A stretch of 64,000 nucleotides of DNA from a virus (lineage: Duplodnaviria; Heunggongvirae; Uroviricota; Caudoviricetes), in IMG/VR virus record IMGVR_UViG_3300031994_000001, positions 349,022-413,021 of that record. The stretch is one strand, 5' to 3'. Position 1 is the first letter of the stretch, and each line of letters opens with the position of its first letter. Position numbers and translations under genes: made by a program. This document shows, in pieces, positions 1 to 64,000 of this stretch. The notes under the pieces are model-generated. The model had not been told where the DNA came from. It worked only from the letters and a program-made list of their open reading frames with translations, and made no database searches.

Positions 1-810
1 ATTCAACGAAAATGCGTACCTTATGTTCAAAGCAGAGTCAACAGACCAAGCCGATTCAATTTTCCTTATTTCTTTGCCTTTGTAATACACGGTCATAACA
101 GCACCCTTGTTGCGAATGCTATTCCGCATAGTTTCCTCCATCTCCTTGTTTTCACGGGCAACACGCTCTTTCTCGTCACGCTCAACTTTCTTCGCATAAA
201 CGTCTTTTACAATGGCTGCGAGTTCGTCATTCTTTTCGGCATACAATCTGTCAAACCCCCAAGACTTAACATAGTCATTCATAATGGAAACAACTTTGTC
301 CGAACTCTTGGTATCACTATGCGATTTGAAATTGTTGTCGGCAAGATAATAGTGGTTGAACTCGCCGTCAATCTTCGTAGCCTTTCCATTTGCGACAGCA
401 TACATAACAAGAACGCTGTATTTCGGGTCGGTGACTGTGTTAGTGTCGGGATTCTTCCTCAATTCATTACCGCCTTTTTTCTCATCGCACATAGGATAGA
501 ACACGAAACTGTGCTTGTCGTCAAGAGAAAACACGAATTTGTCGCCTTTCTCGGTTTCGACAAACTCCGTCTTTATGCCGTAGAAGTCAAGCATATCGAA
601 CATTTTGCCGTAAGCCTTTTCATATTCCCAAGAAAAATAAAAATAAGAGTTGCCGCTTTTCGTGTTTTCTGCGATAATATCCTTGTACCCCGTAATCTTG
701 TCGGCACAATATCCAAAGAATTTTTCCAACGAATACCAACGGAAAGTGTGCAGTTTGCAGTACACATTCTCATTCAACAACTCGTCAGAATTAAGTACAT
801 ATTTTTTCAT
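1..810 (-). CDS. Hypothetical protein, runs off the window start; possible head-packaged protein
   Basis: Hand translation: ATG at 810 gives MKKYVLNSDELLNENVY..., open to position 1 (absent from the ORF track because it has no stop). The N-terminus resembles a capsid-targeting leader ending in LNE. Confidence 0.8.
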   Translation of the reverse strand, partial: MKKYVLNSDELLNENVYCKLHTFRWYSLEKFFGYCADKITGYKDIIAENTKSGNSYFYFSWEYEKAYGKMFDMLDFYGIKTEFVETEKGDKFVFSLDDKHSFVFYPMCDEKKGGNELRKNPDTNTVTDPKYSVLVMYAVANGKATKIDGEFNHYYLADNNFKSHSDTKSSDKVVSIMNDYVKSWGFDRLYAEKNDELAAIVKDVYAKKVERDEKERVARENKEMEETMRNSIRNKGAVMTVYYKGKEIRKIESAWSVDSALNIRYAFSLN

Positions 811-9659: not shown

Positions 9660-11660
9660 TTATTCTTCGGGTATATTGATTTGTGAAATCAAGTCGTCTC
9701 TCCAATCAAGACCGTTCAAGAAACTCTCTTTCAGAGAACCGTTCACGAAAGCACGCCAAGTCAGATACTGACCGCGACCATTTGCAAACTCTTCTTCAAC
9801 AGCCTCAATAACCTCATCAACGTGTTCGGGTGGAACAGCCCAACTGTTGTCATTGTTAGCCTTGACCTCATTCAGTTTAGCCTTGACCTTTGTCCAAATC
9901 ACAAGAACGGGAGGTGCGATTCTGTAAAACTTGCATCTTCCTCTGATTGCGCCCCAACTGTCACCCAACTGACTTGAAAGTTTCTTTTCGGAAAGGTTGG
10001 TGATAATAATGAACCTACTCATAATGCTCATTTCATCGGGAATCATACGCTCAACGGTCTTGACTTTATCTTCCTCATCGTCAGATACAGTAGCACCTTT
10101 CTTGCCCTTGCTTACCTTTTTCAGCATTTCTTGTGACGGACATTCCTTCAGATACCTTTTCTTGTAGTTCACAATGCCGCCTTCCTTGCAACTTTCCATA
10201 CTGTAAAAGTTACCTCTGATGACATCGCCCATATCCGAAACGGTAGGACACTTCACTATCGGGAAGTCGCCTTTCGGTTCGAGAGCCTTTTTCCAAAATC
10301 CGATTTGGAAATCGCTGTCAAACAACTTCGGGGTGTCGTCAAACACAAGCACCTTGCCGTTGTTGTTGTATATGAAGTTGTAAAGTTCCTTTGCGTTACA
10401 AGTCGTGTTGTCACGCTCGGCATAGTCCTTACCCTTCACGAGTTTCATTTCTTTCTTGATTTCATTCCAAGTCTCTGACTTACCGATACCGCCGACACCC
10501 GAAATAAAAATGGCGGGCGCACCCGTGTCAAGGGTTTCAAGTTTTTTAACCCTTGTTCTCTTACAGAACTCAACAAGGAACTGTGTTCTCACTTTCAAAT
10601 CGTCCATCTGCTTGAAATACAAGTCAACAAGTCTCTTGAACTCGCTGAAATTGTTTCCGTACATAAGATTCACGAGGCTTATGTCAATGCCACGGTACTC
10701 CGTACCGTATTCACTTGTCACACCGCTTTCAACACTGACAGTCTCGTTTGTGAGAACATTGGCGTTGATGCCGAAAATAGGCATTGTGCATATTGCATAG
10801 ACAACAGCACAATATGTATCGGGGTTGCTGCTTCTTTTGATGGGAACGCCGCAGGAAAGAATCTCACGGTATTTTCTTCCGTCAGCGTCTCCAACGCAAA
10901 GTGATTCGGCAACGTCAAGCGGTCTGAAGTCAATGGTCTTGAAATATTCAGCCAACTTACCAATACCTTCGAGTGTGATTTTGTCACCGAGGTCGCCAGG
11001 TCTTGAAAACTTCCTGCCGCTTCCAAGTTCGCCGTTAAGCCAATCTATGATTTTCAAAGTTTTTGGATTCTTCGCGGTGTTATTCCAAACTTTCAAAATA
11101 TCGTCTCTGCTAAAAGCAGCCTCGTTAATCATAGGTTCGGAATACTCAACATCCATACCCTCGTACAAGCCGTTCTTGTAACCTTCGGGATGGTTGATGA
11201 TGTCGAACAAAAGGTCAAGCATACGAACCAATCCCATATTGGTAGCCTTGACTGTGTAATTGGCGTTTTGTGAATCCTGCTTCAAATCATAGTTGGTGTA
11301 ATAACGAAGCACGGCAATGTTTTCGTTTCCAACGGGCGTAACTGTGACAGCCTTTCCGTCACCGTGTCCGCTCATAATAAGAACTGTTGACACGCCGTCA
11401 ATGAGTTTGAAGAAAGTGTTGTAATACGCTTTCCAACCGCAATTCTTGTTCAAAAGGCTTATAACAAGTTCAGCCATCTTCTTCATTTTCGGATTGTCCG
11501 AAACAACAAGATTCGGATTGGCTGCAATCGGATTTGCATTGAGTTCGTCAGCAATCTTAACGGTGTCTATTTCAGAACCGTTTGCCTCAAGAATCAGATT
11601 CTCGCTCTCAACAACAGCGTGTTTGCCTAAACGGTTTATTGATTCAGATAATTTTTTCAT
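9660..11660 (-). CDS. AAA-family P-loop ATPase
   Basis: ISGVGGIGKS, VLVFDD, IIITN, AIRGR; ATG at 11660 (MKKLSES); TATAAATA at 11685-11692. Confidence 0.75.
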   Translation of the reverse strand: MKKLSESINRLGKHAVVESENLILEANGSEIDTVKIADELNANPIAANPNLVVSDNPKMKKMAELVISLLNKNCGWKAYYNTFFKLIDGVSTVLIMSGHGDGKAVTVTPVGNENIAVLRYYTNYDLKQDSQNANYTVKATNMGLVRMLDLLFDIINHPEGYKNGLYEGMDVEYSEPMINEAAFSRDDILKVWNNTAKNPKTLKIIDWLNGELGSGRKFSRPGDLGDKITLEGIGKLAEYFKTIDFRPLDVAESLCVGDADGRKYREILSCGVPIKRSSNPDTYCAVVYAICTMPIFGINANVLTNETVSVESGVTSEYGTEYRGIDISLVNLMYGNNFSEFKRLVDLYFKQMDDLKVRTQFLVEFCKRTRVKKLETLDTGAPAIFISGVGGIGKSETWNEIKKEMKLVKGKDYAERDNTTCNAKELYNFIYNNNGKVLVFDDTPKLFDSDFQIGFWKKALEPKGDFPIVKCPTVSDMGDVIRGNFYSMESCKEGGIVNYKKRYLKECPSQEMLKKVSKGKKGATVSDDEEDKVKTVERMIPDEMSIMSRFIIITNLSEKKLSSQLGDSWGAIRGRCKFYRIAPPVLVIWTKVKAKLNEVKANNDNSWAVPPEHVDEVIEAVEEEFANGRGQYLTWRAFVNGSLKESFLNGLDWRDDLISQINIPEE

Positions 11661-11684
11661 ATTATATTGTATTTTCAGCAAATA

Positions 11685-56799: not shown

Positions 56800-57490
56800 T
56801 TCGATTACGCCCAATGACGTGGCGAAAATGATGGTGAGCGTTTCGGAGATGGAGTTCAAACTTTATCCGAACACATACGATACGGATGCCCGCATCGCGA
56901 AGATATTGCGTTTGCGCAGTAGCAGGAATATGTACCGTAACGAGATGTTCGCACACATTGACAACTACTACGGCGGTGTGGCGAAATGGTTTGACTTGTT
57001 TAAGAAACGCTTTGGCGATTCCGTTTCGATAGAGGAACACTATGACGAACTCATTAGTAATTTCTCGTCTCCCGAAATCATAGCGTACTACAACATCTAC
57101 CCGAATTTGAGTTACTATTCGTTCAGAGTTATGGACGAAAAGGACGATAGGGATTGCAGGGAAACCAACAAGACTGTTATGTGTCTGCCCGACACTTCGA
57201 TAAAGTCTATGTATATCAACCTCCGTAATCTGTTTCAGCAGGATGTTGTTGACAAAATGAACAAGTATTTCATCGCCAACAATATGCTTGTTGACAATGC
57301 TATGTTCAAAAAGCCTGCCGTTGTTACGGTTGAGGTTGCCGCATTGCTTGACATTTTCGGGGAGTTTGTGGCGCAGTGCAAAGATGAGAAATTCGCGGAT
57401 GTTGTGTATGCGGGTATATCGTTTATTGACATTGACGAACTCGCCCACACGAGGGTTACTCTGCTGACCGATTATCCGAGTTATAAATAG
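56792..57490 (+). CDS. Hypothetical protein
   Basis: 232-aa ORF in operon. Confidence 0.75.
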   Translation: MSNSITPNDVAKMMVSVSEMEFKLYPNTYDTDARIAKILRLRSSRNMYRNEMFAHIDNYYGGVAKWFDLFKKRFGDSVSIEEHYDELISNFSSPEIIAYYNIYPNLSYYSFRVMDEKDDRDCRETNKTVMCLPDTSIKSMYINLRNLFQQDVVDKMNKYFIANNMLVDNAMFKKPAVVTVEVAALLDIFGEFVAQCKDEKFADVVYAGISFIDIDELAHTRVTLLTDYPSYK

Positions 57491-57493
57491 AAT

Positions 57494-57822
57494 CGGAACT
57501 ATCCCTTTTGGTTTTGTAAGAAATCTTGAAAAATATCATATATAAATATATTAAGTGTATGTAGTTATTTGGAGTATTGGTATTGTGGTTTTATACTAAA
57601 TTAAAAAACAAACTGACTTGTATAAGTAAAACCAAGAAAGTCAGATGACATAGGTCAGTAGAATACTTTAAAATCTCGGTGAGGAACACCGAGTACAGTC
57701 GTGGAGTTATGAACAAACCAAGTGGAACACTCAAGTTAACTGATGACTGCTTGGATAACAGTGAAGCGATTATTGAACTTGAAATCTTAATAAATATTAC
57801 AAGATTAAAAGGAATAATTCCG
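57494..57822 (+). mobile_element. 329-bp MITE with IS1595-like TIRs and an 8-bp target duplication
   Basis: Left CGGAACTATCCCTTTT versus right AAAAGGAATAATTCCG (14/16 inverted match); flanks AATAGAAT (57486-57493) and AATAGAGT (57823-57830). Confidence 0.75.
57549..57822 (+). ncRNA. Structured ncRNA copy B (TnpB omegaRNA-like scaffold)
   Basis: TATAAATA at 57541-57548; hairpin CTCGGTG-AGGAA-CACCGAG, then TACAGTCGTGGAG...GTGAAGCGATT; covaries with copy A. Confidence 0.7.
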
Positions 57823-57847
57823 AATAGAGTTTAACATAGCATTGTTT

Positions 57848-58306
57848 ATGAAACTTTTATCCGATTCCATAAGGAACTTGCAGAACAGTCAGCAGCAGAA
57901 GCCCGTCATCAATGATTCACAGACGGAATTGCTGCCCGATATATGTGAATTGCCAAATGGCGAGTACAAGGCTTACTTTTACGCTTGGGTGTTTGAACTT
58001 GCTGACGGCAGGAAATTCAAGACCCATATCGGGGTGAAACACGGAAAGCGTTGTGCAAAGTTGCTCAACTATAAAGTTGAAAACGGCGAGTTTCGGGAGA
58101 TAGAAAAATTCTTCAACGGTTGTGAAAAACACATAACCGAATTGCCTAATGGAACATATAAAGGCAGATGGTTCGCCTATTGCTTCGAATTGGAAAACGG
58201 TGAAAAATACAAGACCGACATAGGATTGCTGCGAAGCAGGGAACTTACGCCTATCGGAACGTACTCTCTTGTTGACGGGGCGTTGACTGAATTGGAAATG
58301 TGCTAA
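57848..58306 (+). CDS. Hypothetical protein with two internal repeats
   Basis: ELPNGEYK...FELADGRKFKTHIG and ELPNGTYK...FELENGEKYKTDIG. Confidence 0.75.
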   Translation: MKLLSDSIRNLQNSQQQKPVINDSQTELLPDICELPNGEYKAYFYAWVFELADGRKFKTHIGVKHGKRCAKLLNYKVENGEFREIEKFFNGCEKHITELPNGTYKGRWFAYCFELENGEKYKTDIGLLRSRELTPIGTYSLVDGALTELEMC

Positions 58307-61990: not shown

Positions 61991-64000
61991 ATGACCGATA
62001 AAGAATTACGCGACTTGTACATTTTATACAAAAATAGTGGTGCAACTATCCCTTTTAAAGAATGGATTGAACTCCAAGGCGAATCTGGTGATAATGACAA
62101 CAACAAGCAGGTTGTCATTATCAACGGTGGCGGCGAATGTTGTCCGCCCGCACCTTCCGTAAACGTATGCTGCCCTCCGACAAAGAGAACTGTCGGTAGG
62201 GGTAAACAAGGTATCCAAGGTGTCCAAGGCGTTCAAGGTCTGCAAGGTTTGCAGGGCTTGAAAGGTGAATATGCAGCACAAGGCGTGCAGGGCGTGCAGG
62301 GTTTGCAGGGTCCAGCAGGCGGCGGTGGCGGCGGCGACCAAGGTATCCAAGGTGTCCAAGGTGAGCAGGGTTTGCAAGGCTTGGCAGGTGAACAAGGTTT
62401 GCAAGGCATCCAAGGTATTCAAGGTGCTGAAGGCGAACAAGGTTTGCGCGGTTTCCAAGGTGCAGACGGTACTGACGGAAACCAAGGCGTTCAAGGTATT
62501 CAAGGTGCTGACGGAATCCAAGGTGTTGACGGCAAACAAGGATTCCAAGGTGCTGACGGTAAAGACGGCGAGCAAGGTGTTCAAGGCTTGCAAGGTATAG
62601 GCGGTACTGACGGTGAACAAGGTTTGCAAGGTTTGAAAGGTGAACAAGGTATTCAAGGTCCAGCAGGCGGAGGCGGCGGTGGCGAACAAGGAATACAAGG
62701 TCTCCAAGGTGCGCAAGGTATCCAAGGCAATCAAGGCATTCAAGGTGCAGACGGAATCAAAGGTGCAGACGGAATCCAAGGTGCTGATGGTAAAGACGGC
62801 GAGCAGGGTGTTCAAGGTCTCCAAGGTGCAGACGGAATCCAAGGTGCTGACGGCGAGCAAGGCACACAAGGTTTGCAAGGTGAGCAAGGCTTGCAAGGTT
62901 TTCAAGGAATCCAAGGTATTCAAGGAACTGAAGGCAACCAAGGTACACAAGGTTTGCAAGGTATAGACGGCAAAGACGGTGAGCAAGGCGTTCAAGGTCT
63001 CCAAGGTGCAGACGGAATCCAAGGTGCTGATGGTATTCAAGGTGCTGACGGCAAAGATGGTGAGCAAGGTGTTCAAGGCTTGCAAGGTGCTGACGGTCTC
63101 CAAGGTGCTGACGGTATTCAAGGTGCTGACGGCAAAGACGGCGAGCAAGGTGTTCAAGGATTGCAAGGTGCTGACGGTATTCAAGGTGCAGATGGAATCC
63201 AAGGTGCAGACGGTGAGCAAGGTTTGCAAGGTGCTGACGGTATTCAAGGTGCAGACGGAATACAAGGTGCAGACGGTGAGCAAGGTTTGCAAGGTGCTGA
63301 CGGTAAAGACGGTGAGCAAGGTGTTCAAGGTTTGCAAGGTGCAGATGGAATCCAAGGTGCAGATGGAATCCAAGGTGCAGATGGAATCCAAGGTGCAGAC
63401 GGTATTCAAGGTGCAGATGGAATCCAAGGTGCAGACGGTAAAGATGGTGAGCAAGGTGTTCAAGGCATTCAAGGTGCAGACGGAATACAAGGTGCAGACG
63501 GTGAGCAAGGTTTGCAAGGTGCTGACGGTAAAGACGGCGAGCAAGGTGTTCAAGGCTTGCAAGGTGCTGATGGAATACAAGGTGTTGACGGTGAGCAAGG
63601 TTTGCAAGGTGCTGACGGTATCCAAGGTGCTGATGGCAAAGATGGTGAACAAGGTGTTCAAGGTATAAAGGGTTTAGATGGGGATGACGGTGAGCAGGGT
63701 GTTCAAGGTCTCCAAGGTGTTGGTGGCACACAAGGTGTGCAGGGTGTAGCGGGTGAAGCCGCTTCACAAGGTATTCAAGGTGCAACTGGTGCTGACGGTA
63801 TTCAAGGTGCTGACGGCAAAGATGGTGAGCAAGGTGTTCAAGGCTTGCAAGGTGCTGACGGCAAAGACGGTGAACAAGGTGTTCAAGGTCTCCAAGGTGT
63901 TGACGGTATTCAAGGTGCAGACGGCAAAGACGGAGAGCAAGGTGTTCAAGGTCTTCAAGGTGCTGATGGCATTCAAGGTGCAGACGGCAAAGACGGAGAG
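61991..64000 (+). CDS. Collagen-like fibre protein, partial (runs off the window end)
   Basis: Hand translation MTDKELRDLY...ECCPPAPSVNVCCPP, then G-X-Y triplets (GIQ, GAD, GEQ, GKD); no stop, so absent from the ORF track. Confidence 0.92.
   Translation, partial: MTDKELRDLYILYKNSGATIPFKEWIELQGESGDNDNNKQVVIINGGGECCPPAPSVNVCCPPTKRTVGRGKQGIQGVQGVQGLQGLQGLKGEYAAQGVQGVQGLQGPAGGGGGGDQGIQGVQGEQGLQGLAGEQGLQGIQGIQGAEGEQGLRGFQGADGTDGNQGVQGIQGADGIQGVDGKQGFQGADGKDGEQGVQGLQGIGGTDGEQGLQGLKGEQGIQGPAGGGGGGEQGIQGLQGAQGIQGNQGIQGADGIKGADGIQGADGKDGEQGVQGLQGADGIQGADGEQGTQGLQGEQGLQGFQGIQGIQGTEGNQGTQGLQGIDGKDGEQGVQGLQGADGIQGADGIQGADGKDGEQGVQGLQGADGLQGADGIQGADGKDGEQGVQGLQGADGIQGADGIQGADGEQGLQGADGIQGADGIQGADGEQGLQGADGKDGEQGVQGLQGADGIQGADGIQGADGIQGADGIQGADGIQGADGKDGEQGVQGIQGADGIQGADGEQGLQGADGKDGEQGVQGLQGADGIQGVDGEQGLQGADGIQGADGKDGEQGVQGIKGLDGDDGEQGVQGLQGVGGTQGVQGVAGEAASQGIQGATGADGIQGADGKDGEQGVQGLQGADGKDGEQGVQGLQGVDGIQGADGKDGEQGVQGLQGADGIQGADGKDGE
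62201..64000 (+). repeat. Gly-X-Y coding repeat
   Basis: 9-nt periodic caaggt / gacgg units. Confidence 0.95.

Follow-up and report, generated by a model that had tools for sequence, protein, structure and literature searches.

A gene-less IS1595-type transposon with a putative TnpB omegaRNA scaffold in a large gut phage

TnpB has been described in TIR-bounded DDE elements, in branches DDE-1 to DDE-6 and with solo copies included (Altae-Tran et al. 2023, PMC10691335; reviewed in PMC13565253). Solo tnpB elements have the same ends as elements with a transposase gene, and their movement in trans has been proposed (PMC10691335), and the DDE partners named for TnpB are ISL2, IS630 and IS1031 (PMC13565253). 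IS1595 as a TnpB partner is absent from the main texts of PMC10691335 and PMC13565253, and our literature search found no paper on an IS1595-TnpB pairing. Gene-less IS200/IS605 elements encoding omegaRNAs, the PATEs, are also known (Meers et al., 10.1101/2023.03.14.532601). In Fanzors, the TSD is part of the TAM and scaffold, and Fanzor1 is without a pseudoknot (PMC13565253). Why TnpB is rare in cut-and-paste elements is a question raised in the same 2026 review, with inflexible target recognition as the suggested cause (PMC13565253). Novelty of a TIR-borne TnpB and of a gene-less guide, as implied in the preliminary description of the locus investigated here, is thus overrated, both having been published (PMC10691335; Meers 2023).

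The locus, termed copy A, lies in a 64-kb window, the whole stretch of DNA analysed. This window closes a virus record of 413 kb in which 36 tRNA genes and T4-like genes are found. DNA near-identical to that of the phage is present in sheep and bovine gut runs. Comparison with related elements showed that copy A, itself without a gene, derives from tnpB-only transposons of IS1595 type found in large gut phages; it has lost tnpB and carries a separate 5' leader.

Copy A and its relatives within the genome

Copy A is a 329-bp element (57494-57822, 69% AT) whose TIRs match at 14/16 positions, or 21/26 when extended, the family TIR being 26 bp long. The flanking 8-mers (57486-57493 and 57823-57830) match at 7/8, the mismatch falling at position 7, within the seed. 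No ORF of at least 60 aa is present, a 51-codon frame (57679-57834) being what is left of a TnpB C-terminal tail, and paired segments occur at 57697-57701/57767-57771 and 57706-57759. The locus had been described from its letters as an AT-rich element of this length with imperfect TIRs and a 7/8 duplication, lacking an ORF of 60 aa or more and containing a promoter-like motif, a hairpin and paired segments; all of these are present, the last three at 57541-57548, 57675-57693 and 57697-57771, respectively. The ends were likened in the preliminary description to those of ISNha5/ISNwi1, a tentative subgroup assignment; our search found no reference set or paper giving such end patterns. Copy A is confirmed as a non-autonomous IS1595-type transposon, the right part of which corresponds to a TnpB omegaRNA scaffold. 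The features are collected in Table 1.

Table 1. Features of copy A and of two related elements (window coordinates)
Feature	Position	Strand	Remark
TA directly outside left TSD	57484..57485	+	candidate TAM of the family's TnpB; putative function
Left 8-bp TSD copy	57486..57493	+	7/8 versus right copy
Left 26-bp TIR, IS1595 type	57494..57519	+	23/26 to family consensus
T4-type late-promoter motif TATAAATA	57541..57548	+	putative promoter activity
boxA-like antitermination box	57563..57574	+	degenerate in copy A; putative function
5' RNA module, two stems and possible pseudoknot	57586..57645	+	not recognisably tnpB-derived
TnpB omegaRNA scaffold	57675..57822	+	aligns with 3' ends of TIR-tnpB elements
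Scaffold, nexus hairpin	57675..57693
Scaffold, stems	57697..57771
Scaffold, pseudoknot partner	57818..57821
Scaffold, 3' hairpin			partly made of right TIR
Open frame of TnpB C-terminal tail, overlapping scaffold	57673..57834	+	translation matches tail of parents' TnpB
Right 26-bp TIR, also scaffold 3' end	57797..57822	+	24/26 to consensus; conservation ends at last base
Right TSD copy and flank	57823..57838	+	predicted 16-nt guide, by analogy with ISDra2 (PMC10097598)
Copy B	45592..45870	-	diverged; left TIR lost; promoter motif, boxA-like box and scaffold kept
Sister element, similar TIRs, no scaffold	44072..44381	+	80-aa ORF at 44122-44364

Four scaffold copies (A-D) and one stub (E) are present in the genome. 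The four score between E 1e-30 and 1e-35 with a model built partly from copies A and B, and BLAST detects copies C and D at E 1e-133 and 1e-59, respectively. Copy C is ~91% identical to copy A over nearly the entire length and has both TIRs, copy B has compensatory pairs of its own, and copy D lies, co-oriented, within the tRNA cluster. Copies B, D and E are truncated, E being the remnant of a full element still present at the same site in a related phage (L143), and in copies A, B and E the element ends 0-25 nt upstream of a start codon.

The genome contains neither an IS1595 transposase, as expected for a non-autonomous copy such as copy A, nor a cognate TnpB, the sole TnpB being 42% identical to those of the family. 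The label orphan given to the element in the preliminary description therefore holds for the genome of copy A but not for the family, whose parents carry tnpB. The resident TnpB (G000 142.5-143.9 kb, L001) is intact, 425 aa long and of another type; its element is bounded by inverted repeats that are short and subterminal, has a 5' region that looks structured, and appears to interrupt a phage gene.

The same TIRs also surround ordinary phage genes, both in the sister element at 44072-44381 and in L004, L005, L008, L010, L022 and L126, indicating that the TIR family also moves phage genes. Several of the enclosed genes begin with similar N-terminal motifs, and L022 combines a 166-aa gene with part of a scaffold. 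The sister element has no TSD match (3/8) and its 80-aa ORF falls into no Pfam or PHROG family. Elsewhere in the window, the gene downstream of copy A (57848-58306) consists of two similar halves and matches no Pfam, NCBIfam or PHROG family, a collagen-like gene of 9-nt repeats (62100-64000) runs off the window end, and both ends of the virus record sit in similar repeats.

Parental elements, scaffold and leader

A search with the TIRs identified related phage contigs in which the 26-bp TIRs enclose a TnpB of 401-415 aa, the 3' end of the gene overlapping the scaffold; both TIRs, tnpB and scaffold are found in L005, L006, L016, L018, L023, L024, L127, L129, L136, L137, L140, L143 and L147, metagenome and protein look-ups having extended the set. 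In every parent, the scaffold overlaps both tnpB, at its 3' end, and the right end of the element, and all four TnpBs that were aligned have an intact RuvC D/E/D triad. Perfect 8-bp TSDs border 7/18 scaffold elements with both ends, six of these seven carrying tnpB and the duplications of several others being imperfect; the 8/8 duplications are those of L005, L016, L022, L024, L127, L129 and L140, together with the transposase element L126. L126 and the tnpB element L005 belong to one genome; L126 contains a zinc-ribbon DDE transposase of IS1595 type (PF12760, PF12762, NF033547) and cargo between family TIRs that match the consensus at 25/26 at both ends. No element with both transposase and tnpB was found among the related elements, other TIR pairs enclosing phage genes only. 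Thus full-length elements with the same TIRs do exist, tnpB elements as well as one IS1595 transposase element, and the outcome named in advance as damaging, that homologs would never be linked to tnpB, did not occur, intact tnpB lying between the same TIRs.

In a quick tree, the family TnpBs group into a single clade (92 sequences, SH-aLRT 99), and close relatives outside the clade have IS605-type hairpin ends. The clade TnpB scores nearest to IS200/IS605 TnpB in NCBIfam, below the cut-off. Two peptide patterns found no relatives of the clade in bacterial and archaeal genomes. A first long search pattern matched no viral contig, a match inside a gene in L003 was due to chance, and GenBank phages gave only short, weak matches. 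Related IS1595 elements with variant TIRs and 64-66% transposase identity occur in L122-L125, a 747-aa passenger gene being carried in L122-L124. In L023 (3821-3996, minus strand), the 3' part of the scaffold and the right TIR are tandemly duplicated behind the tnpB element. Two clade TnpBs (P0049 in L128, P0063 in L130) are found without TIRs, which we tentatively read as loss, and may have been immobilised or domesticated; in both, the loop still seems able to pair with the 3' end.

The fold of copy A alone is modest (z -2.4). Across 25 scaffold homologs, 94% of cells are paired and double changes occur in 17/33 pairs, slid controls giving at most six, and RNAalifold recovers the same main helices; shuffle counts are not probabilities here, as the homologs are related. 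Covariation in a larger alignment, named at the outset as a check, is thus strong and, combined with the E-values of the scaffold copies, indicates that the feature in copy A did not arise by chance. A model built from this family alone matches the omegaRNAs of IS605-type relatives at E ~1e-6; Rfam yields nothing at the gathering threshold and, by E-value, only chance snoRNA matches. Parents, transposase element L126 and covariation together support the reading of the element as a TIR-bounded, DDE-type transposon with a putative guide-RNA scaffold.

The loop of the first (nexus) hairpin can pair with TIR positions -5 to -2, in the register of the ISDra2 pseudoknot. This pairing is found in 96% of cells and is conserved, but without a double change within the family; it competes with a small TIR hairpin, and a loop change in L012 weakens it. 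Outside relatives display a matching shift in the pairing of loop and 3' end, as read by eye. Conservation across TIR-tnpB elements stops exactly at the last TIR base, which suggests that TSD and flank would form the guide, as had been predicted for the flank beyond the TIR. For the five guides, no TA-flanked second target was found in the genome or the fetched loci. At the scaffold 3' end, the right TIR has taken over from the hairpin of IS605 ends, suggesting capture of an IS605-type tnpB, together with its omegaRNA, by the 26-bp TIRs of IS1595.

In gene-less copies, the leader between left TIR and scaffold comprises TATAAATA, a boxA-like box and the paired module. Genome-wide, 61/111 copies of TATAAATA are no more than 90 nt away from a gene start, as against 2/18 to 22/67 for most control 8-mers and 27/47 for an overlapping 8-mer, and the motif or a close variant also stands in front of tnpB in the parents. 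The boxA-like box (consensus from PMC13753749) is cleaner in copies B and C, L012 and L181 than in copy A and is absent before tnpB in 6/6 parents. The pattern occurs three times genome-wide, within the 0-5 of the shuffles, so that its position alone counts as evidence. At G000 11380-11680, upstream of the 36-tRNA cluster, four tandem promoter-like motifs are each followed by a boxA-like box, a candidate case of phage use of host Nus antitermination.

The 5' module has no match to tnpB loci and belongs to no Rfam family. Double changes occur in 6/17 of its pairs in an alignment of just five sequences, four of them in one six-pair stem. A gene-less IS605-type element with hairpin ends and a different omegaRNA (L181, ~60-440, minus strand; the same element in L038) has promoter motif, boxA-like box and 5' module in common with copy A. 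A relaxed module pattern retrieved L012 only, and four genome matches to the module pattern look like chance. The 5' leader is thus common to gene-less copies of the copy A family and to this unrelated IS605-type element. The further proposal of purpose-built, protein-free guide cassettes, in which a portable non-coding leader has been joined to omegaRNA scaffolds of two unrelated transposon families and the IS1595-borne version borrows a TnpB with an unusually short TAM, TA, from co-infecting jumbo phages for homing into rival genomes, is speculative and, in our estimate, rather unlikely.

Mobility, candidate TAM and possible function

Empty orthologs were found for sites A and B only, both in one diverged phage. 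In L020, the two flanking genes are 18 bp apart, without the element and with a single target copy, and L178 is empty at site B; TA precedes the target in both. The empty site with a single 8-mer that the preliminary description named was therefore recovered for site A, in diverged form, since L020 and L178 are only ~70% relatives and the junctions are not base-exact. The mini-element is located at other flanks in copy C, in L012 and in two further runs, indicating that it moved as a unit after tnpB loss. Two runs with the mini-element also hold contigs with cognate TnpB tails. Contigs from RNA runs cover parts of the scaffold and flanking genes, one of them crossing the TIR into the next gene; such contigs reveal neither a discrete RNA nor RNA ends, strand or level, and the parts they leave uncovered prove nothing.

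In 18/20 scaffold elements, the left TSD is immediately preceded by TA, versus 6/31 at the mirror position (p 6e-7) and 9/24 at cargo/transposase ends (p 5e-4), p-values that are optimistic because the sites are related via phage ancestry. The one-sidedness extends to the clean-TSD subset (8/8 vs 3/8, p 0.03) and, with sites overlapping the late promoter omitted, to 13/14. Two insertions in read sets, possibly one site, have TA outside the left end, and gene-less insertions with a readable left end stand behind TA in 5/5 cases. Among scaffold-free elements, 5/7 have TA on at least one side, and a pyrimidine-A step at either flank seems to be preferred by the transposase. We propose TA as a candidate 2-nt TAM of the family's TnpB.

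Our preferred explanation, which we consider probable though far from secure, is that copy A is a trans-moved, late-transcribed mini-element homing between phages by means of a co-infecting relative's TnpB. An IS1595 transposase acting in trans would have moved copy A, giving the 8-bp TSD. Late transcription would run through the right TIR, TSD and flank becoming the guide, and cognate TnpB from the co-infecting relative would load the mini-element RNA and cut element-free alleles, in which TA is followed by the 8-bp target and then the flank. Repair from the filled genome would copy the element, amounting to RNA-guided homing between phages. The filled site would be spared, as TA on the left precedes only eight matching bases and the full match on the right is preceded by CG; ISDra2 requires ~12 matched bases (PMC10097598). 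Against this explanation stand the missing transposase and cognate TnpB in the genome of copy A, a resident TnpB that is 42% identical and whose RNA is unmatched by the family model, the RNA-run contig reading through the TIR, the seed mismatch between the two TSD copies, the pseudoknot lacking a double change in the family and having a competing TIR hairpin, and the occurrence of TA bias at cargo/transposase ends, where a one-sided transposase bias is conceivable.

The main rival accepts the same origin with the RNA now a passenger, either a neutral relic or a late-promoter donor for the downstream gene. It is possible but less likely, being consistent with a genome devoid of cognate TnpB and transposase, the truncation of copies B, D and E, the position of the ends in A, B and E 0-25 nt ahead of start codons, an RNA contig continuing into the downstream gene and the L012 loop change. 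However, gene-less copies contain pair types unseen in the sampled parents (A-U at columns 15/27 and 46/94, U-A at columns 57/91), they have a boxA-like leader, typical of non-coding transcription and missing from the parents, and TA stands in front of each of the five gene-less insertions whose left end can be read, observations that speak against a mere passenger.

With a comparable, fairly low probability, the one-sided TA could reflect site choice by the IS1595 transposase, or integration into late promoters, which are AT-rich, instead of a TAM. Cargo/transposase ends have A at -1 in 19/24 cases, with TA in the 9/24 mentioned above, and several sites straddle TATAAATA. Conversely, TA remains at 13/14 once promoter-overlapping sites are dropped and is found at the left end of only 2/5 transposase elements, and the near-identical TIRs would leave the enzyme little by which to tell the ends apart.

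Domestication of the RNA by the phage, as a decoy binding the TnpB of competitors or as a late RNA in which the 5' module has a separate function, is improbable: four scaffold copies without a nuclease, co-orientation of copy D within the tRNA cluster and the 5' module in an unrelated element would fit, but copies at differing sites across phages, absent from orthologous sites, behave as mobile DNA. Use of the scaffold by the resident TnpB (genome 142.5-143.8 kb), the only TnpB in the genome, whose catalytic motifs are intact and whose scaffold has a comparable outline, is very improbable given 42% identity, a distant branch, different ends and an RNA that the family model does not match.

With the gene-less copies it can be asked whether phages use one another's guides in trans. 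For the question raised in the 2026 review, the family is a direct test case, combining a free 8-bp TSD, a TIR as scaffold 3' end and a 2-nt TAM candidate. The common 5' module represents an undescribed RNA structure. If the TAM holds, ~90 nucleases that are compact (400 aa) and broad in their targeting would be candidates for genome editing.

Comparison with known systems

The family resembles the DDE-associated TnpBs in having TnpB and omegaRNA between TIRs and in its solo tnpB elements, and differs in the 8-bp TSD of free sequence, the jumbo phage host and the gene-less element. With the IS1595 family (PMC8101967) it has in common the TIRs, the 8-bp TSD and, in sister element L126, the zinc-ribbon DDE transposase; in contrast, the cargo is a guide-RNA scaffold and transposase is lacking from copy A and its genome. 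As in ISDra2 (PMC10097598) and IS605/IS607 omegaRNAs (10.1101/2023.11.20.567912), the scaffold overlaps both tnpB, at its 3' end, and the right end, with stem-loops, a putative pseudoknot from loop to 3' end near -5 to -3 and a predicted flank-derived guide. Unlike in ISDra2, the 3' end of copy A is an IS1595 TIR, the candidate TAM is TA rather than TTGAT and the guide would begin with the TSD. Fanzor1 is similar as an RNA-guided nuclease system between the TIRs of eukaryotic DDE transposons (PMC13565253), whereas in the present family the candidate TAM is located beyond the TSD, the pseudoknot seems to have been retained and the parents encode a typical TnpB of prokaryotes instead of a Fanzor.

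The PATEs are likewise protein-free mini-elements with an omegaRNA, needing TnpB and transposase in trans. They have subterminal hairpin ends, no TIR or TSD and scarless, target-restoring excision, whereas copy A has TIRs and an 8-bp TSD, so that its excision would not restore the target, and a naive allele in some other genome would be the likelier one to be cut. In its presumed mode of action copy A thus resembles a PATE, while its ends place it in IS1595 and its scaffold is a true omegaRNA homolog.
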